DNA of 64,000 nt, taken from the IMG/VR virus record IMGVR_UViG_3300025011_000027, positions 27,967 through 91,966 of that record. One strand, written 5' to 3'. The notes beneath the pieces are model-generated. The model did not search any database, was not told the origin of the DNA, and saw nothing but the letters and a program-made list of their open reading frames with translations. The DNA comes from a virus. The translations under genes and the position numbers were made by a program. Below are positions 5,325-38,072 of the stretch, in pieces (position 1 is the first letter of the stretch; the number at the start of each line of letters is the position of its first letter).

Positions 5325-6047
5325 TTACACGATAACACCTGGTCCGCTAGGAGTCGATACAGCATCACCAGATACTGCTACTCTCTTACCGTTAAGCGTT
5401 AATACACCTTCCTTAGCTTGAATAATAAGCCCTTGAGCTAGGTTAATCGTTAAAATACCATGCGTAGTTGTCGTTGCCGGTGACCAATTTTTACCTCTAC
5501 CTTTTATAGCTGTCATATCTTTGGAAGCTTCATTAGGACCGTAAATGATGTAAGAACCATCAGGATAATGAGTCTCATGGTGACCACCTTTAGTTATCAC
5601 GGTATATACACCCGATTCGTGGCTATTGACGGAAAGTCCTGATTCGTCTAAATGTAGCTGAGAATCGAGAGGAAAGTCAAATCCTATTACTCGCGGAGTT
5701 TGCCAATTACCATCTAAAAATCCAATAATAGCTATTATGTCCGATTCATGGGACAAACTCCCACTATCATCAGTACCTTCTGAAGTATCAACAGGAGCTA
5801 CATTTTTTATTGACGCTAAATACCTAAAACCTGCTACTGTACTTGCAGAATTTAATAGTACTCTAACATTTCTCAATACGTCACCACTAAATAACTTAAC
5901 ATCTACTGAGGTTCCGTCTCTAACTCCAATTACTTTCCCACTATACAAATTACTAGAATTCCTTGTAGAAGTGTGCTTAGTCTTTTGTACTGAAGACTGA
6001 CGTACTACAGTATTTAGTGGTAGATTAGAGTAAGGATTATGGAACAT
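5325..6047 (-). CDS. baseplate central spike (gpV/gp5-like)
   Basis: OB-fold GKVIGV...VDVKL...IIGFLDGNWQTPRVIG; C-terminal NGKRVAVSGDAV. Confidence 0.65.
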   Translation of the reverse strand: MFHNPYSNLPLNTVVRQSSVQKTKHTSTRNSSNLYSGKVIGVRDGTSVDVKLFSGDVLRNVRVLLNSASTVAGFRYLASIKNVAPVDTSEGTDDSGSLSHESDIIAIIGFLDGNWQTPRVIGFDFPLDSQLHLDESGLSVNSHESGVYTVITKGGHHETHYPDGSYIIYGPNEASKDMTAIKGRGKNWSPATTTTHGILTINLAQGLIIQAKEGVLTLNGKRVAVSGDAVSTPSGPGVIV

Positions 6048-18748: not shown

Positions 18749-18912
18749 CTCCGACCTTTTTAATAAGTATCTTTGAAATTATTTGACTACAAGTTTAGAA
18801 TAGTTAAGTCTTTCTCCATTAACTGCGCTCATTTTAGCACCGATCCAGTGATAATACAAGGTATATTAATAGTCTTTCATAAATAATTGTTCCTCATAGA
18901 CCACCCCCTTCA

Positions 18913-19719
18913 TCATAAAGCACGTTCTACCAACTTAAGCAAATTCTCAGTAACCTTCGGGATACAAAAAGAATAAACTGCTTGAATGATAGGATTAGGT
19001 TCGATACTAGGATGCCACCAACTTAATGGGTCACTACCAACCTGTTTTCCATTAACTACTCTAGGAGTTGAAACTCTTCTAAAGGTCACATAGTTTGTAT
19101 GGCCTGGATTCCCTGTTTTATACATTCCGTGATAGACACTGGATTGATGAGTGTATCCCTTGAAGCTAGTTTCAGAAGGAGCGTCCCAAGTGAGTGGAGC
19201 CTCCCACTTTATACCCCCAGTTCCGTGTGAAACGCTCCTAGTAAGCTGCTTAGCTTGTTTGTATACTTCATCAGGCATGCTCATTTTAATTGATATTGCG
19301 CTTGCCCCAGAACTTGGTGAAGTTGGAGTATAATGTCTGAAAGGGATAGTATTGTACTTCCCTGACCCATCTTTGGTTGTTCTAGCTTTAGGACCGCTAA
19401 GTAAGTCTGGTTTCATGTCCCAAGCTTCTTTTCCACCTTCAATCTCTAGTACTTCTTTAGCATACCCAACTGGAGATACAATAGCTTTAAATTGGGAAGG
19501 GAAATTCAATGAGTCACCAGTCGAGAGTGCTTTTGCATATTCATCATCAGTAAGACTTTTTGACATTCCAGGAAGTACGTTTCCTTGAACTGCGGAACGC
19601 CACACATCACGAACATAAATGGCAGCGTTCTCCAAACCTCTCTGAAGTAGTTCTCCATTTATTCTAACGTCATTCAGAGCATCACCTAACTGAGATAAAT
19701 CAACATCTATTTCGTACAT
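18913..19719 (-). CDS. neck / head-tail protein
   Basis: WDMKPDLL, YNTIPFRH, YVTFRRVS...SDPLSWWHP (Herelleviridae-like). Confidence 0.65.
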   Translation of the reverse strand: MYEIDVDLSQLGDALNDVRINGELLQRGLENAAIYVRDVWRSAVQGNVLPGMSKSLTDDEYAKALSTGDSLNFPSQFKAIVSPVGYAKEVLEIEGGKEAWDMKPDLLSGPKARTTKDGSGKYNTIPFRHYTPTSPSSGASAISIKMSMPDEVYKQAKQLTRSVSHGTGGIKWEAPLTWDAPSETSFKGYTHQSSVYHGMYKTGNPGHTNYVTFRRVSTPRVVNGKQVGSDPLSWWHPSIEPNPIIQAVYSFCIPKVTENLLKLVERAL

Positions 19720-27800: not shown

Positions 27801-28190
27801 TTAGTATACCCTTTCTTCTGACAGGTTTACGGCGTGTACATTCTCTAAGGTATAGAAACAAGGTTGCTGATCATGAGCTTTAACCCATTCGTCGAAGACT
27901 TCTTGGAATTTACGGGTAAGCTCTGCTTCTGCTTCGTGGGAGATACTATCCAAATACCCATCTGAAGATTCTCCGCATTCTTCTCCAGCGTCACATCTTA
28001 GCTGCTCAAGGATAGTTTCAGCATCAATAGTTGGCCTGAACCATTTAACTTGACCAACATAGATATCGCGTCTCTCACCACAATCAAATGCGTCCCGAAG
28101 TGCTTCCTTCTTAGTTTCACAGGTTCCATTACCCCAAACACCGTCTTCAGTTGCATTCCAAGACCACAGTCCTTCTCTAATCTCTGACAT
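27801..28190 (-). CDS. conserved phage hypothetical protein
   Basis: WGNG..ETKKEAL..A...IYVGQ...IDAETILEQL; RBS AAGGAG. Confidence 0.6.
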   Translation of the reverse strand: MSEIREGLWSWNATEDGVWGNGTCETKKEALRDAFDCGERRDIYVGQVKWFRPTIDAETILEQLRCDAGEECGESSDGYLDSISHEAEAELTRKFQEVFDEWVKAHDQQPCFYTLENVHAVNLSEERVY

Positions 28191-29588: not shown

Positions 29589-31259
29589 TCATTCATCGTC
29601 TAGTATCTCAAACAGTAGTATCTTAGCACCTTCATTCTTCTTCAGTGCGTTATCACTTGGTTTCTTTTCTGGAGTTGCAGCTTTCTTTTTGTCTTGAGCA
29701 GTAGGCTTAGAGTCTTTCCCCTCTTTGCCTACCGCCTTCGACGCACCATCTTTTCCTTGTCCCTTAGAAGACTTAGGATCACCGCCTCCCGCGTCTTGCT
29801 CGGCCGTAGCCTGTTCTTGAGCTAGTGACGCTGACATTGCTGACATATACACGGTGCTATCTGGAACGTCTCCGAACTCTAGATCTCCTTCTAATCCCAT
29901 GGAGCGTCGAGATTCGTTAAACGTCATACCAGCTTTAAGTTGTTTACTAATCAATTCTATTCGTCGATCTTCGTCGGCAAGGTCTGTATCATATATCATA
30001 ACTAAATCGTCATAACGAGGTTTAATGACTACTTTAGTTAACCAACTAGCATGTCCAAATATAATGCTCTCTAATCCCTCTTGCTTAGCGTCAGAAAGGA
30101 TTTCATCTTCATTAGCTCCATTACCTATGCTCATCCCACCGCTGGATCCTTTGTCAATTGTAAAGTTAACTATTGACGGGTGCGCTCTGAATGCTGCGGT
30201 CTTTAACTGAATAATAATCCTCAAGAATTCAGCAAATTGAACGTCTTTTGGAAGCTCTCTGATCTTAATTAACTCAGCTTTGAAATTCTCATCCGCAGGG
30301 ATAACTGGCACACGTTGATAGTCTCCAGAACCACTTTGGTCAAGTACTTGTCTTTGAAATGCTCCAAGTCCGATAGGGTCAACGTCACCATATAGAAATA
30401 GCATACTTTCAGGACTGTCTTGATTGAATAGTCCATCATTATATGCCCAAGCATTCAACCACGTTTGTGTAGCCATAATAGACTGCTCTAGTGCCGACCC
30501 TGCTCCATATGCCCATCGGTCAATCTCGACACTTGGGTTGGTAATGTTTACGCTCATTTCTTCAGCGGTCCAGCATGCTACAGGTAAAGCGTCAATCACT
30601 TGAACATATGCGGCGTTAGTAACATCCAATCCATAGGTCTTAAATATTCCTTCATACGATGCGCTTCTGGTGGTTTTGTTCTTCTTAGCAAAGTCCATCA
30701 GAACTTCGATAACAGGACGAATCGTAGTACCGTCCACAAGATGATAAGAGCAAGGTGCTCCAGTACGATCTTTAGTAATGACCATAGCCTTTCGATCATA
30801 TGTAAGCTCTTGGTCTGTGCATACCGCGGCGAAGTCGATAAACCCATTTGGATGAATCATAGGATTGACGTTCTCTATGATCTTCTCAACCTCTTTACAA
30901 CGGCGTATAACGTCCTCTGTGGGGCTATAGTTAGGGTCGGCGTGATTCTCGTTCACCACTCTATATCCGACCTGCTTACCAGGCACTACGACCTTCTTAG
31001 AGAGGTATTTAACTTGTGCTACTCTTGCCATAATGATGATCTTATCTATTAGCGATTTCTCGCGTGATAATCTTAGTAAGTCGAACTGAATAGAGCTATT
31101 TGGTTTGTGGTATCCTGTTCCCGCCATGTCTCGTGCTTGTGAATACTGAGAGAAGAACTTACCTCTAGCTGCTTGCTTTTGAGCTTCTTCTTCCATTTTC
31201 TTGGCGAGCGTTACCCGCTCCGGAACGATTAGCCCATTGTATTGTGCCCACTCAGCCAT
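29589..31259 (-). CDS. portal protein
   Basis: DQELTYDR, YHLVDGTTIR, AYVQVID, YGAGSALE, YNDGLFNQ, KDVQFAEF, MTFNESRRSMGL. Confidence 0.9.
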   Translation of the reverse strand: MAEWAQYNGLIVPERVTLAKKMEEEAQKQAARGKFFSQYSQARDMAGTGYHKPNSSIQFDLLRLSREKSLIDKIIIMARVAQVKYLSKKVVVPGKQVGYRVVNENHADPNYSPTEDVIRRCKEVEKIIENVNPMIHPNGFIDFAAVCTDQELTYDRKAMVITKDRTGAPCSYHLVDGTTIRPVIEVLMDFAKKNKTTRSASYEGIFKTYGLDVTNAAYVQVIDALPVACWTAEEMSVNITNPSVEIDRWAYGAGSALEQSIMATQTWLNAWAYNDGLFNQDSPESMLFLYGDVDPIGLGAFQRQVLDQSGSGDYQRVPVIPADENFKAELIKIRELPKDVQFAEFLRIIIQLKTAAFRAHPSIVNFTIDKGSSGGMSIGNGANEDEILSDAKQEGLESIIFGHASWLTKVVIKPRYDDLVMIYDTDLADEDRRIELISKQLKAGMTFNESRRSMGLEGDLEFGDVPDSTVYMSAMSASLAQEQATAEQDAGGGDPKSSKGQGKDGASKAVGKEGKDSKPTAQDKKKAATPEKKPSDNALKKNEGAKILLFEILDDE

Positions 31260-31314
31260 AACGCTACGCCTCCTAAATTAAATATGTCTTATAAATGATA
31301 TCAGAACTATGTAT

Positions 31315-31342
31315 AGTATAGCGGGTTTTCCCCAAGAGTCAA
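31315..31342 (-). promoter_or_regulatory. sigmaA-type promoter for the portal operon
   Basis: TTGACT-16-TATACT. Confidence 0.55.
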
Positions 31343-31343
31343 C

Positions 31344-31385
31344 AAAAAGAGAACGCGGAGAGGGACCAACCAATCGCGTTCTCTT
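31344..31385 (-). terminator. intrinsic terminator closing the ncRNA
   Basis: AAGAGAACGCG...CGCGTTCTCTT-TTTG. Confidence 0.7.
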
Positions 31386-32000
31386 ATTTGGTATGATGTG
31401 TTGTTGAAGGCATCATACTATTTGTGCCAGAGCAGGTCGCCTACTACCCCTCTGACTTGCATCATACGTTTTGCTTCCTAAAAATACACTATATGTTGAG
31501 GGATAAAGAGTGCATAGACCTTCACTGTCGGGAATTCTGCGGAAACTCCCACCCAATGTCTCTCAAAGTCTCTACACGAACTGAAAGATACATGCTAGTC
31601 CAACATTCAGTATACCACCTTCGTAGGTCTGATAGTCAGAGCTATGCAACATGATAACACACCACCTTATGATTCAATTAGTGTAAGCAATGCCACCTAT
31701 ACTTACGTACTCCCTCGAAGTGTCTTTATCACACTTCTACACTAATGCTTTTCAGCATCCCAAAATTAACTATTTTTAAGAGATAAGCGAACCTGGATTC
31801 AGTTCCCAATTAGATTGGGCACCTCCATAGAGTTCGCTTCTATTTCTCTTGAATGCTTCTTACCCTCCCAGAATAAGCATTCGACACACTGCCCTCACTT
31901 TCAGATTCTTACTTGCAGTGCTTCCCTAGTTACTTAATCCTGGCTGTTAGTTCATCAGCGTACTCATTTACTCGCGGGCAATATTATCCGCCGCCACCAA
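31345..32000 (-). ncRNA. large structured ncRNA candidate (ROOL/GOLLD-like size class)
   Basis: ~650 nt with no sense-strand ORF, packed with nested helices, ends in a terminator. Confidence 0.65.
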
Positions 32001-32004
32001 GATG

Positions 32005-32259
32005 TTAGTCCAAACTCGTTCTGCGCTCACTGAGCTTCGGTTGTTTCTTACGGTGTACATTCTTACCGTCTTTACAATCGGGACACAAGCATGCTACCGC
32101 TCTGTGGCTGTGAGTGACTAATGAAGAGCCAAGGAAACGTAGTCCTTGGAGCGTTCGTTTACATTGATCGCACTGAAAGGGAAATAAAGTATCACACTCT
32201 TGCCAAACAATGTTTTGCTTTATTGGTGAACCTTTAAACCCATCAAACGCTCTAGCCAT
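32005..32259 (-). CDS. hypothetical Zn-finger protein
   Basis: CDQC...CPDC. Confidence 0.55.
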   Translation of the reverse strand: MARAFDGFKGSPIKQNIVWQECDTLFPFQCDQCKRTLQGLRFLGSSLVTHSHRAVACLCPDCKDGKNVHRKKQPKLSERRTSLD

Positions 32260-32564
32260 CAGTTTTTACTTGGATCAAGCTTAGCGTTATCAAGCTCAAT
32301 AAGAATAGCTCTTACCTGAGGATTAGTTTCTGCGGTTTTAATAAGGAGTGCATTCTGGTCAGCCATAAACTCAGCTTTAGCTTTTCGAACGTCTTCCTCA
32401 GTAACTACACCTGCCGACAATAAGAGGGTTAGAATAAACTCCGATCCATCCCTCGATAGCATTTCTTCAGTGTAGTACATTTTGTTAGGATCTAACTGCT
32501 TAAGCTCTATGACTGCCGCGGCTGGTTTGTTTCTGAACTGACTTAAATCAGGAATTTTGCTCAT
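32259..32564 (-). CDS. hypothetical protein
   Basis: RBS, coupled ORF. Confidence 0.6.
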   Translation of the reverse strand: MSKIPDLSQFRNKPAAAVIELKQLDPNKMYYTEEMLSRDGSEFILTLLLSAGVVTEEDVRKAKAEFMADQNALLIKTAETNPQVRAILIELDNAKLDPSKN

Positions 32565-32693
32565 TTGAGTTCCTCTTCTCTAACTAAACGTCATAAAATC
32601 TTCTGAGAGCTTACGTGCGGCGCTGTGCGGCATTTTGATGTTCTTTATGTGCAAATACTTCCCGCGCATGCGCTGACTCGTTACGGGCTAAAT

Positions 32694-32924
32694 CTACATG
32701 ATCCTATTTCTACTTTTGTACTGCATATATAGAAATTCAATGATAGCGTAACCAAATCCACCTAATATCACTAAAATTAAGAGTGGGATAGCTACTTGGA
32801 TTCCCATACTGAAAGTTAAACAGACAAATGATACGACTAGCCAAAATAAGAATTTAAGTGCTTTCATAGTGTTGCGCCTTCCTTCTTTAGTTTTACATAT
32901 TATAACATAAGGAAAGCGCACCAT
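32694..32924 (-). CDS. small membrane protein (likely start MKALKF at ~32867)
   Basis: Two hydrophobic helices. Confidence 0.5.
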   Translation of the reverse strand: MVRFPYVIICKTKEGRRNTMKALKFLFWLVVSFVCLTFSMGIQVAIPLLILVILGGFGYAIIEFLYMQYKSRNRIM

Positions 32925-33111
32925 ACTATCCTTAGTTTTTAACGATTACGCTTCCGTGATGCTTTGGCAACTTTGTTCGCGCGGTTACGTTTTGCACGAT
33001 ACCTAAATAGTTTGAAATCCTCTTCATTTAGAGGAAAGTCTCTGCGCTCTTGACTTGGCATCATAGCTGCTAGAATCTCATCTGGTAAACCACTTCCGTA
33101 CGACAAATTGA

Positions 33112-33378
33112 TCACTCTCTTTCTAATCTTTTTAAGAACTTATCACGAACTAAGATCATTCCCATAGCCATTTGGGGATTAACTTTTCTCGCATATTGAA
33201 GCTCTTCATTTATGTCCGCAAGAAAAGCCTTTATTCGTTGATCATCAGACAGTCGTGATGGTTCTTCGTTTCCGCATACGGAACAGACATGTACCATGAT
33301 AATCGAATCAGGCATATTATCCCCTCCTTGACTGAATGACTTTATCTGTAACCCGTTGAGCTGCAATCTTGAATGCAA
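33112..33378 (-). CDS. hypothetical protein (likely start MPDS after AGGAGG)
   Basis: CSVCG; internal RBS. Confidence 0.5.
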   Translation of the reverse strand: MHSRLQLNGLQIKSFSQGGDNMPDSIIMVHVCSVCGNEEPSRLSDDQRIKAFLADINEELQYARKVNPQMAMGMILVRDKFLKRLERE

Positions 33379-33414
33379 AGAATAGGATAAGATATCCCAG
33401 TGTTGCCATAATAC

Positions 33415-33810
33415 TTACCTCCCCGCATTAGAATTTTTACGACCATTGGGAGATTTAACTATGTACACGCAACCGCACTCTAAGCATGTTACGCTTACTA
33501 GGTCATGGTCTTGACTAAGGTTTTCCTTTTCTGTTCGTAAATATCTTGCCGCAGATGTTTCAGCATAACAAGTAGGACAGCTTGAAGTAATTTGAGAGGA
33601 TTCGATACTGATAATTGGTAAGTCGCCATGATAGGAAAGGATACGCACTGAGTAACTAAATATCTGAAGTCTCTCGACATTGTACTTCTTGATGATATGA
33701 GCTATCCAGTGCATTAAATCGTTTCTGCTACACTTTCCATGAGCGTAATAGCTGATTAGGTTATGGATGTGAGTACGATCTTCGAGGGTAGGGAATTGAA
33801 GAACTGGCAT
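33415..33810 (-). CDS. hypothetical Zn-ribbon protein
   Basis: CPTC...CLECG; RBS AGGAGGTG. Confidence 0.6.
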   Translation of the reverse strand: MPVLQFPTLEDRTHIHNLISYYAHGKCSRNDLMHWIAHIIKKYNVERLQIFSYSVRILSYHGDLPIISIESSQITSSCPTCYAETSAARYLRTEKENLSQDHDLVSVTCLECGCVYIVKSPNGRKNSNAGR

Positions 33811-33837
33811 GTTATCACACCTCCTAACCTTATTTAG

Positions 33838-34575
33838 TTACTCGATTATACCGATGCTCTTGAACTTACCTTCATTGTCAAAACTATAGTAAGTCGCGTA
33901 ACCCACTAAACCGACAGTTTTTGGCTCCTTGTTAACAATGTTAATGAAGATGACTGGTTCTTTAACATCATTGAGGTCTTCACCGAAAGGCACTTCGAAT
34001 TCACTGAACATGGTTTTAACTCTCACATAGTCTGTATCCGCTGCGAACTCAGGAGCAACATAAGCTGGAGCGTCTTCTTTCTCCTCAGCGTCAGTGGTAT
34101 TGAATAGCCCGCACTCGCTTTTCTTATCGCATGTATCGCAACCTTTGGCCTCTTGCATGAGCTTAAACGCTCTACCGGCAACATCATACAGAACGCAGTG
34201 GATAACATTGTCGCCGCCTTCAGCTAACCCATATCCAACATCTTCAATCTTGACTTCGCACGTTGCAACATCATAACCGCAAGTGTCACAAAGGTTGGTC
34301 CTGTAAGCGTCAACTTCATAATCCTGCAGGAGAACTTCGCTGAGCTTCAATTCTTCGCCACGCTCAAGCTTTAAGACTTTCCACATTATGCCTATTGGAT
34401 GATTGAGCACCTCAGCGGTTAGGTCATGCATAACGCAACCAATCACGTTCTCACTTGGGCCATAAGTTACATCTTCAGGCTTCACGATGCAGTTTAACCC
34501 CTTAACCATTGTACAGGAATCACAAAGGTGGATGGGTTTCTCACCAGCGGTATCTTTCTCAGTTTTCTCGTTCAT
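33838..34575 (-). CDS. Cys-rich repeat protein
   Basis: Two LCD(S/T)C...C....EDV.YG....NVI.CV..D repeats. Confidence 0.65.
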   Translation of the reverse strand: MNEKTEKDTAGEKPIHLCDSCTMVKGLNCIVKPEDVTYGPSENVIGCVMHDLTAEVLNHPIGIMWKVLKLERGEELKLSEVLLQDYEVDAYRTNLCDTCGYDVATCEVKIEDVGYGLAEGGDNVIHCVLYDVAGRAFKLMQEAKGCDTCDKKSECGLFNTTDAEEKEDAPAYVAPEFAADTDYVRVKTMFSEFEVPFGEDLNDVKEPVIFINIVNKEPKTVGLVGYATYYSFDNEGKFKSIGIIE

Positions 34576-34611
34576 TTAGTGGTCAACTCGCTTTCTTTCT
34601 TAGATGCTTAA

Positions 34612-34641
34612 TATATAACAAGATCATCGAATTTTTTAAGT
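34612..34641 (-). promoter_or_regulatory. phage-specific promoter motif (copy 2)
   Basis: ACTTAAAAAA...TTGTTATATA. Confidence 0.7.
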
Positions 34642-34643
34642 GA

Positions 34644-35144
34644 CTAAAAGTTTGTTTTAATGAAGTCGATTAAGGACTGAATATCTTCATTAAGACGCTT
34701 GTTTCGTGACGCTATCACCATCGCATACCCGTCTTCTGACTCATCTTTGCTACAATTGATGGTATAGTTATATCCTTCAATCTGGTGTCCAATGGTATCA
34801 AGCAACTTAAACAGAGGAGCATTAAGTGTATGATCTGTCAGTAAGGGAACATCTTTAACCAGTTCGACTTTGCTTCTGTCTTCAGCAATAGCCCTACCTA
34901 ACTTCTTGTTAAGCTCTTGCTGGATTAAAGGGCTTGGGCAAGATAGTAAATTAACTACGTGGCGACAACCCTCATTCATAATTTTACCTATGATAGCATC
35001 TTTCATATCATGAGTATAGAATGCAGGATCAGTAAACACTTTGTCCATTGCAGGACACTTAGCGCACCTTCTCAATTTCTCATCTTGCGCGGTTATTTCA
35101 GAATAAGTTTTAAGACCAAACTTCCAAGCATTTTTCTCTTTCAT
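34644..35144 (-). CDS. hypothetical protein (paralog of 35188-35532)
   Basis: CAKC...GC...CPS motif. Confidence 0.6.
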   Translation of the reverse strand: MKEKNAWKFGLKTYSEITAQDEKLRRCAKCPAMDKVFTDPAFYTHDMKDAIIGKIMNEGCRHVVNLLSCPSPLIQQELNKKLGRAIAEDRSKVELVKDVPLLTDHTLNAPLFKLLDTIGHQIEGYNYTINCSKDESEDGYAMVIASRNKRLNEDIQSLIDFIKTNF

Positions 35145-35187
35145 TAGTTTAATAGCCTCCTTTAGTTTTTAAAGTTATTCACCCTCT

Positions 35188-35532
35188 TTAGGCAGGTTCC
35201 CAGCAACTCATTTCTTCTTCCATTGTTGAAATAAGATCGTCGATAGTTTCAATAGGTTCGTCGTTGCCTGTAAAGGCTTCGAACTCTTGACGCAATACAC
35301 CAACTTGGTTGTACATTTCAAGTAGATCAAGTAAGCGCATGAGCTTCGTATTGTCTACCTTAGGAGGCAATAGATCTTCTTTTGCAAGAGTGCTTGGACA
35401 TATCTCCATCCCGTATCCTTTGTAGCAACCAGTCTTCCGTAGCTTGTCGATGATGATTACTTTATGCTCTTCAGTGTGGTCCTCTTTCAGTGCTATGCAC
35501 TTTGCACAACCTACTTTGATTTCATTCTCCAT
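35188..35532 (-). CDS. hypothetical protein
   Basis: CAKC...GC...CPS motif. Confidence 0.6.
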   Translation of the reverse strand: MENEIKVGCAKCIALKEDHTEEHKVIIIDKLRKTGCYKGYGMEICPSTLAKEDLLPPKVDNTKLMRLLDLLEMYNQVGVLRQEFEAFTGNDEPIETIDDLISTMEEEMSCWEPA

Positions 35533-35671
35533 TAACCATCACTCGCTTTCTTTCTTAACTCCATGTGGTCTAGTATTCCCACATATGCAACCGCGGCTGT
35601 GAATGCAATTAAAAATGATACAATGACTATCGTTAACATAAAAAACTCCCTTCATTTGCTATCTGAATAGA

Positions 35672-35701
35672 TATATAACAAATGAGGAGAATTTTTTAAG
35701 T
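35672..35701 (-). promoter_or_regulatory. phage-specific promoter motif (copy 3)
   Basis: ACTTAAAAAA...TTGTTATATA. Confidence 0.7.
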
Positions 35702-35702
35702 G

Positions 35703-35924
35703 CTATTTGATATAGCCTAACTCATCCACTAACCCGCGCTTATCCAATTCATCATAAATTGCTCTACTCTCTATGCCTGTGTACTCGTTAGACATCCCAC
35801 AACTTTGATCCATCTGTAACGCATCATGACCAGTTTTAAGGAACTCATTAGTGGCGGTTGGTATCATCTTCAGTATGTTCTCGTGTCGTTGCTTTCTACG
35901 CTTCTTAAATCCAAATAGATCCAC
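35703..35924 (-). CDS. hypothetical protein
   Basis: Coupled ORF. Confidence 0.5.
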   Translation of the reverse strand: MDLFGFKKRRKQRHENILKMIPTATNEFLKTGHDALQMDQSCGMSNEYTGIESRAIYDELDKRGLVDELGYIK

Positions 35925-36307
35925 TATCCTCTATAACTCCCTTCATTATCAAATATAGGTAGAAAAGAAGTCTCTCTTACAAATTCGGGATACTCTCTCA
36001 TGGTAAACCTGCATCCTGGATCGTAGAACCAACCATTATTCCACACTGTCCAATGAGTGTTCTTATCGTCTGTGAAATGCAGCTTCACTATGCATAGATC
36101 AGGCTTCTTAACTCCTGTACTCAGTCTAATAAGCTTATCCCCACATTTGATACCTAAAGAGGTCAAAGCTTTCACAACATCCCTTGTTCTAGTTCCGCCC
36201 TTTGTACTGAATACTTTTATTGACTCTTCAAGAGTAATATCCGCAAGCATCGCCACGCATGTTTGGCCACATAAACTCGAATCTCTCGGCTGCTGAAGTA
36301 GGTTCAT
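35924..36307 (-). CDS. peptidase C39-like protein
   Basis: QQP...LCGQTCVAML, HWTVW, YDP (Cys-His-Asp). Confidence 0.75.
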   Translation of the reverse strand: MNLLQQPRDSSLCGQTCVAMLADITLEESIKVFSTKGGTRTRDVVKALTSLGIKCGDKLIRLSTGVKKPDLCIVKLHFTDDKNTHWTVWNNGWFYDPGCRFTMREYPEFVRETSFLPIFDNEGSYRG

Positions 36308-36308
36308 A

Positions 36309-36467
36309 TCATTTTACTCCCTTAAACCAACGTACTTGCATTAGTGGAATATGTATAGTCTCACCATTCTCTAATTTGAGCCAAAGTAGTGCAAATCCTG
36401 CTCTTGCTTCAACAACTTTAAATTCCTCTACATAACCGTCCATCCATTTTACTTTAACAGGCATCAT
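36309..36467 (-). CDS. small hypothetical protein
   Basis: Not in the ORF track; MMPVKVKWMDGYVEEF...; RBS GGGAG. Confidence 0.55.
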   Translation of the reverse strand: MMPVKVKWMDGYVEEFKVVEARAGFALLWLKLENGETIHIPLMQVRWFKGVK

Positions 36468-36503
36468 TCTTAATAGCTCCCTTCCTGGTACATTCTACTT
36501 GAA

Positions 36504-36533
36504 TATATAACAAAAAGAGAGCTATTTTTAAGT
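36504..36533 (-). promoter_or_regulatory. phage-specific promoter motif (copy 4)
   Basis: ACTTAAAAA...TTGTTATATA. Confidence 0.7.
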
Positions 36534-36536
36534 CGA

Positions 36537-38072
36537 TTATACGTAAAATTCATTTGGTATGATCTTAGGTTTTGCAAGTGATATAGCATTCTCAAGCGCA
36601 TCCAAAATATCATCATGAGAAGCCTTCGGTCCATACACCACCATTTGGTTGTAGCACTTCTTAAACTTGCTGTGAATACGTCTGCCTGGCATTCTCGTGT
36701 TATCTACAAATCCATCCTCATGGTCAAGTGCTTCTCTCATATAGACCTGCCCGTTCTCAAAATAAGGCTGCATAGTCATTAAGCGGGTATACTTGTCACT
36801 GATATGATTGAGGCCCTTAACCGGTATCACAGCGTCTTTAATGACCTGTTGCTTCAGTGCCTGTTGGTATGCATTCGTCTCTATTCCAACTCTTGACGGT
36901 AGCCACTCTTGATACTTCTTCACGATCATTTGAACCTGTACTATAAAGTCTATGTGACCATCCCAAGGATCTAATAACACTATCTTACTAGTGGGAGTTA
37001 TTCCAATCGTGAAGTCTACAAAGTCGTCCGCACTCTCTTTCTCACTGATAGCAGGGTCAATACCTTGATAGAGCGTAAGAGGTTCACCATTGAATATCCA
37101 ATGTTCTTTTTCTTCATCGAATTTGATTTGTGAGCTTGTGTACCACTTGAGCCACTTTGCAGGGAATGCTCCACCTGTGAGTGATTGTGGTCTTTGCTGA
37201 TAGAGACTAGTCCACTCATAACTTCCAATGCTTGCTCTAATTCCATAATACCTTGTAAGAGGGAACTGTTCTGGCCAAAGTGGCTCTCCAATACTTCGTT
37301 CAAGTACGTCTCCTTCTTCTGCGAGTGCTGGGAGGTTGATAATGTCCCATTGTTCTGCAAATTCATCACCATCCTGCATAGCTTTTATCAGTCTTCCTGC
37401 CAGATCATCTTCATGCCATCTAGTCATAATTAAGATGATAGCTCCATCACTCTCTAAACGTGTATAAGCGGCTGAACAATACCACTCCCAGATACTATTC
37501 CTCATTACTTCACTGTTCGCCTCTTGACGGTCTTTATGTGGATCGTCGATGATTAAAATGTTAGCGCCTTTCCCTGTGAATGAACCTCTTACCCCTGCAC
37601 AACCATATCCTCCACTGACAGATACTCCATCCTTTGTGCTTTGTAATGCCCAATCATCTACAGCTTGGCTATCTTGTGCTAACTGTACTCCAAATAGTTC
37701 TGGTCCATATTCACTAACTAATCCTCTTGTTTGTCTTGAGAACTTGTTTACTAAGCTTGCCGAATAAGATGCTGCAAGTATTCTGTGGTCAGAATGCTTA
37801 CCAAGGTACCAAGCTGGGAAATGAATAGTTGCTGTCTGTGACTTATAATGTCGAGGGGCGGTAAATATCATTAGTCGTTTAATCTTCCCCTGCTCTACTT
37901 CCATCAGCTTTTTATCTATCAGCAATTGATGCTTAGCCTGCCACGCTTTAGCTCCTTTAGGACTGACATAGTACTTATATCCAGTAAGGTTAGCTCTTGC
38001 CGCGCCTACTTGCCATTCATGATTTGTAAATTGGGGTATCTGCTGCGCTGCTTGTGCCATATTACCATTCAC
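36537..38072 (-). CDS. terL: terminase large subunit
   Basis: Walker A APRHYKS, Walker B ILIIDDPHK, IMTRWHEDDLAG, nuclease GIDPA and HDDILDA. Confidence 0.95.
   Translation of the reverse strand: MNGNMAQAAQQIPQFTNHEWQVGAARANLTGYKYYVSPKGAKAWQAKHQLLIDKKLMEVEQGKIKRLMIFTAPRHYKSQTATIHFPAWYLGKHSDHRILAASYSASLVNKFSRQTRGLVSEYGPELFGVQLAQDSQAVDDWALQSTKDGVSVSGGYGCAGVRGSFTGKGANILIIDDPHKDRQEANSEVMRNSIWEWYCSAAYTRLESDGAIILIMTRWHEDDLAGRLIKAMQDGDEFAEQWDIINLPALAEEGDVLERSIGEPLWPEQFPLTRYYGIRASIGSYEWTSLYQQRPQSLTGGAFPAKWLKWYTSSQIKFDEEKEHWIFNGEPLTLYQGIDPAISEKESADDFVDFTIGITPTSKIVLLDPWDGHIDFIVQVQMIVKKYQEWLPSRVGIETNAYQQALKQQVIKDAVIPVKGLNHISDKYTRLMTMQPYFENGQVYMREALDHEDGFVDNTRMPGRRIHSKFKKCYNQMVVYGPKASHDDILDALENAISLAKPKIIPNEFYV

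Follow-up and report, generated by a model that had tools for sequence, protein, structure and literature searches.

Promoter-proximal intrinsic terminators are part of the leaders of phage late operons, as exemplified by the arrangement of the lambda PR'-tR' type, and hairpins processed by RNase III occur in phage mRNAs, e.g., the R sites of T7 and the sites found in the early RNAs of SP82 and SPO1. Besides these small elements, much larger RNAs are carried by phages of the Bacillota, including the ROOL (RF03087) and GOLLD (RF01998) families and the two long non-coding RNAs (lncRNAs) of phage K (Kayvirus), lnc001 of 635 nt and lnc002 of 1154 nt, which were seen by RNA-seq as abundant transcripts endowed with their own early promoter and located beside tRNA genes (PMC9241854).

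The locus described here is a hairpin-rich gap located upstream of the portal gene of a phage known from the IMG/VR record IMGVR_UViG_3300025011_000027 (91,966 nt, rated complete by CheckV). The whole stretch of DNA that was analysed, i.e., the 64,000 nt extending from position 27967 to position 91966 of this record, is referred to as the window, and the coordinates of the locus are those of the window. Nearly all of the genes are oriented in the same direction, 73 of the 75 ORFs of at least 150 aa in the whole genome being carried by the minus strand, and neither tRNA nor tmRNA genes were recognized by ARAGORN in the 64 kb of the window. In the direction of the minus strand, the locus is organized as follows:

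36537-38072, minus strand: TerL gene (PHROG 38, E 4e-102)
32260-36536, minus strand: about 14 small ORFs between TerL and p84, without Pfam or PHROG match among those scanned
32005..32259, minus strand: p84, ORF of an 84-aa Cys-rich protein (CxxC...CxxC), kept in relatives and last gene before the gap
31260-32004, minus-strand gene order p84, gap, portal: the gap, 745 bases from the p84 stop to the portal ATG
31983..32012, minus strand: candidate promoter for an independent transcript, TGGACT-18-GATAAT (9/12), a weak match of the promoter scan
31340..32004, minus strand: non-coding stretch, presumed to be transcribed, either by prolonging the p84 unit at its 3' end or as an RNA of its own (about 635 nt)
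31615..31698, minus strand: cluster of three Shine-Dalgarno-like AGGUGG motifs, from motif positions
29589..31259, minus strand: portal gene (PHROG portal families)

A first-pass annotation of this DNA had proposed a large and ornate non-coding RNA, of the ROOL/GOLLD class or of a new one, lying directly upstream of the portal gene and between terminase and portal. The gap, at 31260-32004, does abut the portal gene (29589..31259), and the second statement holds in a loose sense only, TerL being 4.3 kb away and separated from the gap by p84 and about 14 small ORFs. The gap had also been called the longest of a gene-dense window, and the stretch 31260-32004 is indeed the longest one lacking an ORF of at least 80 aa on either strand, in the whole genome of 91,966 nt. 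Another ORF-poor stretch, of 516 nt without any ORF of at least 80 aa on either strand, occurs at G000:C1:26146-26661, 1.3-1.8 kb before the start of the window.

The non-coding nature of the gap, as already annotated, is borne out by the absence of ORFs, of a codon signal and of protein-family remnants. All six frames are broken by stops, the longest sense stop-to-stop frame reaching 49 aa. With a codon-usage log-odds score trained on the phage's own 73 long ORFs, every sense frame of the gap scores between -0.13 and -0.67, vs a mean of +0.24 and a 5th percentile of +0.07 for in-frame coding sequence. A PHROG search with the stop-to-stop pieces of the gap matched no family, and the three longest ORFs opened by a start codon have not been called by gene callers in a collection of 15 billion proteins. 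The GC content amounts to 42%, vs 39.6% for the genome. Neither iterons nor tandem repeats of note were found in the gap, and an internal duplication of about 165 nt (direct repeats D2/D5) was dropped as a candidate, since it did not exceed shuffled sequences. The three AGGTGG motifs reported within about 85 nt are present at 31615-31698 (minus strand), in a window that contains 24 minus-strand copies per 64 kb; the second stands 9 nt ahead of the ATG at 31652, which opens an ORF of 26 codons (31572-31652, minus strand), and the third precedes an ORF of 3 codons. As the promoter scan returns promoter-like sites at chance frequency, the match at 31983..32012 (minus strand) counts as no more than a possible promoter.

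None of the known families of large RNAs was recognized in the gap. At gathering thresholds, Rfam 15 gave no match over the whole window, and a search of 31200-32100 with lax filters and E<=10 returned just two chance-level matches, far below gathering, to SraB and, across the terminator on the opposite strand, to Thr_leader. Membership of ROOL or GOLLD, to which the first-pass annotation had likened the gap, is contradicted by the lack of any covariance-model match even at E<=10 and by the lack of tRNA neighbours, beside which these RNAs often lie in prophages. A group I or group II intron was rejected, both p84 and portal being full length compared with their homologues and no Rfam intron model matching, and so were RNase P and tmRNA, which gave no Rfam match even at E<=10, ARAGORN finding no tmRNA. 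At the DNA level, comparison of the gap with the INPHARED phages, the PLSDB plasmids and 401 Bacilli genomes yielded only chance matches of 20-40 nt. A recurrent match of 28 nt (90% identical), encountered in three genomes, was discarded as a chance match located inside a conserved coding gene and belonging to no Rfam family.

Folding of the gene-sense strand (minus, 31340-32004) yields a minimum free energy (MFE) of -203.4 kcal/mol, with a z-score of -2.3 to -2.5 against shuffles, vs MFE values of -151 to -180 and a z-score of -0.26 +/- 1.1 (minimum -2.0) for 12 coding controls of equal length. The gap region is thus the most stable of 13 equal-length windows of 665 nt (-203 kcal/mol). The antisense strand folds as well, with a z-score of -3.05, and in the partition function both the positional entropy and the number of confident pairs remain within about 1.2 sd of the shuffles. 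The stretch to be considered is accordingly somewhat more structured than its surroundings, with neither a strand-specific nor a convincing global fold. The individual elements recognized in the 5'-3' direction of the RNA are the following:

31886..31921, minus strand: hairpin with a 7-bp stem GCACUGC/GCAGUGU and a 22-nt loop (pair probability 0.99; local z not significant)
31851..31882, minus strand: hairpin GAAUGCU.../...AGCAUUC (pair probability 0.98; local z -0.3 to -1.5)
31778..31850, minus strand: extended hairpin, an outer 6-bp stem AAGAGA/UCUCUU around the 55-nt module (-28.1 kcal/mol, z -4.5)
31785..31839, minus strand: 55-nt hairpin module with 22 pairs and a CUA triloop (-23.2 kcal/mol, z -4.75)
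31717..31759, minus strand: two small hairpins, a GAAA-tetraloop stem and GAAGUGU/ACACUUC with a 7-nt loop (z about -3; pair probabilities 0.83 and 1.0)
31523..31558, minus strand: hairpin of 5+9 bp, CAUUG..UGGGAGUUU / GAAUUCCCG..CAGUG (z -2.9; pair probability 0.93-0.97)
31391..31467, minus strand: 3' hairpins GUCAGAG/CUCUGGC and GUAUGAUG/CAUCAUAC, from inverted repeats and partition function
31340..31385, minus strand: intrinsic terminator with an 11-bp stem, a 17-nt loop and the tail UUUUUGUUG (z -4.6, pair probability 0.95)
31313..31342, minus strand: predicted sigma-70-like promoter of the portal/head operon, TTGACT-16-TATACT (10/12), overlapping the terminator tail

When windows of 70 nt are compared with dinucleotide shuffles, those surpassing the shuffles correspond to the 55-nt hairpin (z -3.5 to -4.75), 31716-31785 (about -3), 31521-31590 (-2.9) and the terminator (-4.6), i.e., 4-5 local hairpins in all. 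Windows within about 31851-32010, most of 31596-31725 and 31431-31560 have z-scores of about -0.3 to +2.6, and about half of the region, including the 5' 100 nt and the middle, is unstructured. The description of the gap as "tiled with helices" consequently goes too far, only the 4-5 local hairpins surpassing shuffles. Every helix listed by the first-pass annotation does exist as an inverted repeat, and most of them have a pairing probability above 0.8, but the long-range closing helices, TGCATAG/CTATGCA and TAGTGTA/TACACTA, are absent from the high-probability helices of the partition function. With a z-score of about -2.4, the advantage over shuffled controls is larger than that of the coding controls, but it is marginal and equally good on the antisense strand. 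Because the structure is marginal, is not strand-specific and leaves about half of the region unstructured, the label of a new ornate large RNA is doubted and receives no positive support from these folds. The modular structure is deduced from the fact that only the 4-5 local hairpins beat the shuffles, with unstructured spacers between them. Depending on the method, the GAAA-tetraloop stem within 31717..31759 comprises 6 pairs, GAUGCU/AGCAUU (partition function), or 4-6 pairs (local windows). A second copy of GUAUGAUGC at 31459-31467 could pair with the same partner CAUCAUAC, giving alternative hairpins upstream of the terminator; this alternative pairing spares the terminator stem, so that no attenuator logic is evident.

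The comparison with relatives throws light on the position of the gap. In a large protein collection, 38 other relatives of the portal were encountered, with identities mostly of 51-70%, and tblastn with the portal retrieved 545 phage records, the distant matches being portals of the Herelleviridae type. Four distinct relatives with a portal 54-63% identical were compared at the DNA level, namely L002/L007, L003/L005 (a Gordoniibacillus kamchatkensis prophage), L004 and L008, together with the fragments L006, which is 95.5% identical in the portal DNA but does not extend as far as the gap, L009 and L010. Furthermore, a portal variant at least 90% identical (P0041) resides on an ENA contig of 33,287 nt and a 70% relative (P0002) on a Logan contig of 17,382 nt. 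One of the portal homologues, P0031, consists of 892 aa and contains a LAGLIDADG_2 domain (PF03161), so that the portal gene of this relative may contain an intein or be fused to a homing endonuclease.

Homologues of p84 that are 42-60% identical occur in L004 (812-1075), L003/L005 (L003 2003-2260) and L008 (5136-5396). The proteins of this group, of 84-88 aa, share two CxxC pairs and an invariant C-terminal ERRTxLD motif, and are encoded near TerL and portal. With respect to Pfam and PHROG, p84 matches no family, apart from a weak Zn-ribbon hint (Pfam); it may be a packaging accessory protein. Between p84 and portal, the relatives hold quite different contents: two ORFs of 82 and 52 aa in L008, a single ORF of 83 aa in L004, and 3.7 kb of ORFs in L003. 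Comparison of these slot ORFs with the gap by tblastx left no trace, and nhmmer and blastn found no DNA similar to the gap in the relatives' loci. The p84-portal interval therefore varies from one relative to another and is, in these sequences, a variable cargo slot. A second cargo insertion can be read in the 4.3 kb of small ORFs that lead from TerL to p84, because in L008 the p84 homologue comes directly after TerL. The role in assembly or packaging suggested for the gap RNA by the first-pass annotation had been drawn from its position, which in relatives is that of the variable cargo slot.

What recurs at this slot is the terminator. The one announced at the end of the region is present, with an 11-bp stem at 31347-31385 and a U run behind it, and 31340-31385 (minus strand) is predicted to act as an intrinsic (Rho-independent) terminator, a stable GC-containing stem being directly followed by the U run in the folding model. 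A terminator also occurs immediately before the portal gene in L008 (hairpin at 5850-5925), L004 (1350-1385) and L002 (1010-1105), and not in L003. In L004, a similar TATACT element stands behind its own terminator. In L002, the U run is only about 35 nt away from the portal ATG, which leaves no space for a downstream promoter, and the portal gene of this relative may depend on read-through.

Taking these data together, the gap is best read, with a probability of about one half, as a lineage-specific non-coding spacer, most likely transcribed, which contains a few independent hairpins and ends in a terminator-promoter junction. It would occupy the slot that relatives fill with swappable small genes. 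Because no terminator is found after p84, transcription arriving from the terminase side should cross the whole gap, and the strong terminator closing the gap also makes its transcription likely. RNA polymerase would pass from the terminase-side genes through p84 into the gap and halt at the 31340-31385 terminator, and the portal/head operon would restart at its own sigma-70-like promoter directly behind. The upstream hairpins, including the 55-nt module, would probably be local elements serving the 3' end, the processing or the stability of the transcript. Provided that the predicted promoter is used and the gap transcribed, transcript punctuation would be its one conserved job. This reading is favoured because a terminator before the portal is a repeated feature of the group, in contrast to the rest of the slot. 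Several points nevertheless speak against it: the region is the most stable of 13 windows, and a passive spacer would not need such folding; phage genomes rarely keep 650 nt devoid of function; the 55-nt module has no U run in the window and thus cannot serve there as a terminator; and the clustered AGGUGG motifs stay unexplained.

The 55-nt hairpin deserves a separate treatment. A scan of IMG/VR with a 19-nt pattern led to the record IMGVR_UViG_3300024999_000503 (G402), of 19,225 nt, 47% complete and with an estimated full size of about 40 kb, in which positions 18873-18927 (L024 8269-8323) are 100% identical over 55 nt to 31785-31839 (minus strand) of the window. This identity stops exactly at the ends of the stem and is the sole DNA similarity between the two phages, whose proteins have only a few replication and regulator genes in common, at about 42% identity. 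An assembly chimera was rejected as the source of the shared hairpin, both contigs being collinear with their own relatives on both sides. The hairpin is more stable on the sense strand (-23.2 kcal/mol, z -4.75) than on the antisense strand (-19.3 kcal/mol, z -3.6), and two G-U wobble pairs exist on the gene-sense RNA strand only. A covariance model of the hairpin recognizes a single copy each in the genome of the window phage and in G402, and no copy in the Gordoniibacillus genome or in the L004 record. A degenerate scan of IMG/VR for diverged copies returned G402 only, and a search of 401 genomes of the Gordoniibacillus order gave chance matches only. Exact-pattern scans of IMG/VR for two other hairpins of the gap, that of 31523..31558 included, found none.

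In G402, the hairpin is located 27 nt downstream of a TTGACA-17-TATAAT promoter, is followed by the U run UUUUUCUAU, and stands behind the gene of a 179-aa transcriptional regulator (PHROG 1558/36). The promoter and the leader are common to all 18 loci related by this regulator, with an ordinary GC-rich hairpin and a U run at the same leader position, and the stems of these leader terminators vary by compensatory changes (GCGC, GCCG and GACG types). Up to the base of the stem the G402 leader is identical to those of L039-L041 and L045, and the upper 14 nt of their terminator are replaced by 45 nt in G402. From these alignments, the 55-nt module occupies the position of the promoter-proximal intrinsic terminator in G402's phage family. 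The leader terminators of this family (L032-L050) are defined by a hairpin situated about 30 nt past a conserved late promoter and bordered by an A tract and a U run; the G402 copy has these attributes and the window copy has not. The latter is devoid of a U run and of a late promoter upstream, and is wrapped in an extra 6-bp stem. Because the U run is absent, the window hairpin cannot be read as a terminator there; a homologue of the G402 regulator and the late promoter motif of that family are both absent from the window phage. The general layout of the L032-L050 late leaders, which lie some 60-180 nt past the regulator gene (L039 1553-1710 being an example), comprises the PHROG 1558/36 regulator and its terminator, a promoter with a TG-extended -10 element, about 30 nt of conserved leader, the GC hairpin with its U run, then a SD and a small Cys-rich ORF. 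This leader looks like that of an antitermination-controlled or attenuated late operon.

Other explanations of the gap have to be weighed against the spacer reading. The gap might instead encode an independent, lineage-specific non-coding RNA of about 635 nt, belonging to a new class, starting at its own promoter, ending at the terminator and acting in trans in late infection, possibly by titrating a host factor or ribosomes via the AGGUGG cluster or by helping head assembly or packaging. The candidate promoter at 31983-32012 and the strong terminator would delimit such a transcript, the region has the lowest MFE among the 13 equal-length windows (z about -2.4) and several hairpins of high pairing probability, phages seldom keep useless DNA, and the 635-nt and 1154-nt intergenic lncRNAs of phage K offer a precedent (PMC9241854). 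However, the promoter match does not exceed chance, neither the 5' 100 nt nor the middle is structured, the antisense folds as well relative to shuffles, and one of the modules is a borrowed terminator-type hairpin. Moreover, searches of INPHARED, PLSDB, about 800 Bacilli genomes and the relatives' loci, as well as the exact IMG/VR scans (three hairpins), yielded no homologue, and the relatives lack the RNA at the p84-portal slot. An independent RNA of this kind is consequently held to be unlikely. Its fuller version, a lineage-restricted RNA of about 635 nt and undescribed class, equipped with its own promoter and terminator, expressed late next to the head genes, acting in trans and partly built of modules exchanged between unrelated phages, is distinctly improbable; ribosomes or a host factor that binds RNA could, for instance, be sequestered by its AGGUGG motifs, or it could take part in prohead assembly. 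That the gap is the decaying remnant of former cargo genes, in which nothing but the terminator and promoter at the end would still be functional, is a rather unlikely reading, to which the small swappable ORFs of the relatives' slot, the restriction of the region to one lineage and the SD-like motifs preceding the 26-codon and 3-codon ORFs, which look like orphaned gene starts, lend some weight. It is opposed by the lack of a residual codon-usage signal in any frame, of a tblastx trace and of a PHROG match, by a folding more stable than that of any coding control, and by the speed at which phages normally delete useless DNA.

The remaining readings are much less probable than these. A function of the gap at the level of DNA, as a pac or cos packaging site, an origin of replication or a series of palindromes bound by proteins, was considered since its inverted repeats are strand-symmetric, the plus-strand z-score being as good as that of the minus strand, and since it adjoins p84, a protein with a weak Zn-ribbon hint that is kept next to TerL in L008. 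This proposal is very unlikely for a gap that is not AT-rich (42% vs 39.6% GC for the genome), has neither iterons nor tandem repeats, is not located at a contig end, with no end repeats reported, and is missing from the relatives; the two extra G-U pairs of the 55-nt hairpin, confined to the sense RNA strand, also speak against it. It is even harder to believe in a small-protein or type I toxin-antitoxin-like locus, in which the 26-codon ORF behind AAGGUGG would give the product, translated under the control of the structure around it. A distance of 9 nt, which is a good spacing, separates the SD from the ATG at 31652, and the peptide is hydrophobic in its C-terminal half, but the hydrophobic stretch covers only about 15 residues, the ORF scores poorly for codon usage, has no homologue and is absent from the 15-billion-protein collection, and no antisense promoter or terminator was found, so that the locus does not qualify as a type I toxin-antitoxin system. 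Finally, size and phage origin are the only arguments for a member of ROOL, GOLLD or another catalogued family of large RNAs (OLE, group I/II introns, RNase P, tmRNA), a reading refuted at the sensitivity of the Rfam models, which also conflicts with the absence of tRNA and tmRNA genes and with the completeness of the flanking genes, and which retains a practically negligible probability.

With respect to the known systems, the gap adds no new RNA class as it stands and belongs, as an orphan non-coding region, to a general kind already known. It resembles the phage K lncRNAs in being intergenic, several hundred nucleotides long, carried by a large Bacillota myophage with a distantly related portal, and without Rfam family or known function. 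It differs from them in that they were seen by RNA-seq and have tRNA neighbours, whereas the gap is known from its sequence, lacks tRNAs and is located in the late/structural region. Should the entire gap prove to be conserved in close relatives, with covarying pairs, it would have to be upgraded to a new phage lncRNA. The similarity to ROOL and GOLLD is limited to a similar size range and to the carriage by Bacillota phages or prophages, the gap differing by the lack of a covariance-model match, of tRNA neighbours and of a homologue family, and by its only partial structure. In this respect, a hairpin-rich phage gap need not be ROOL- or GOLLD-like, and local z-scores combined with the comparison of slots allow modular spacers to be separated from global folds.

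At the scale of individual hairpins, the comparison leads to the regulatory elements of phage transcripts. Like the late-leader terminators of L032-L050, the window contains a 55-nt hairpin identical to that of G402, the lowest 5 bp of which match the base of the family stem; unlike them, it has no U run, no promoter 27 nt upstream and no regulator homologue, and it carries the extra 6-bp wrap. By analogy, the 55-nt hairpin and its extended form may resemble a phage RNase III site, with which they have in common the irregular hairpins of 22-28 bp with internal loops, situated between transcription units and leaving stabilising 3' hairpins. A hairpin common to otherwise unrelated phages may point to a common host factor, e.g., a terminator-reading or RNase III-type activity, and the 55-nt hairpin provides a clean example of a regulatory RNA hairpin that moves as a module between phages.
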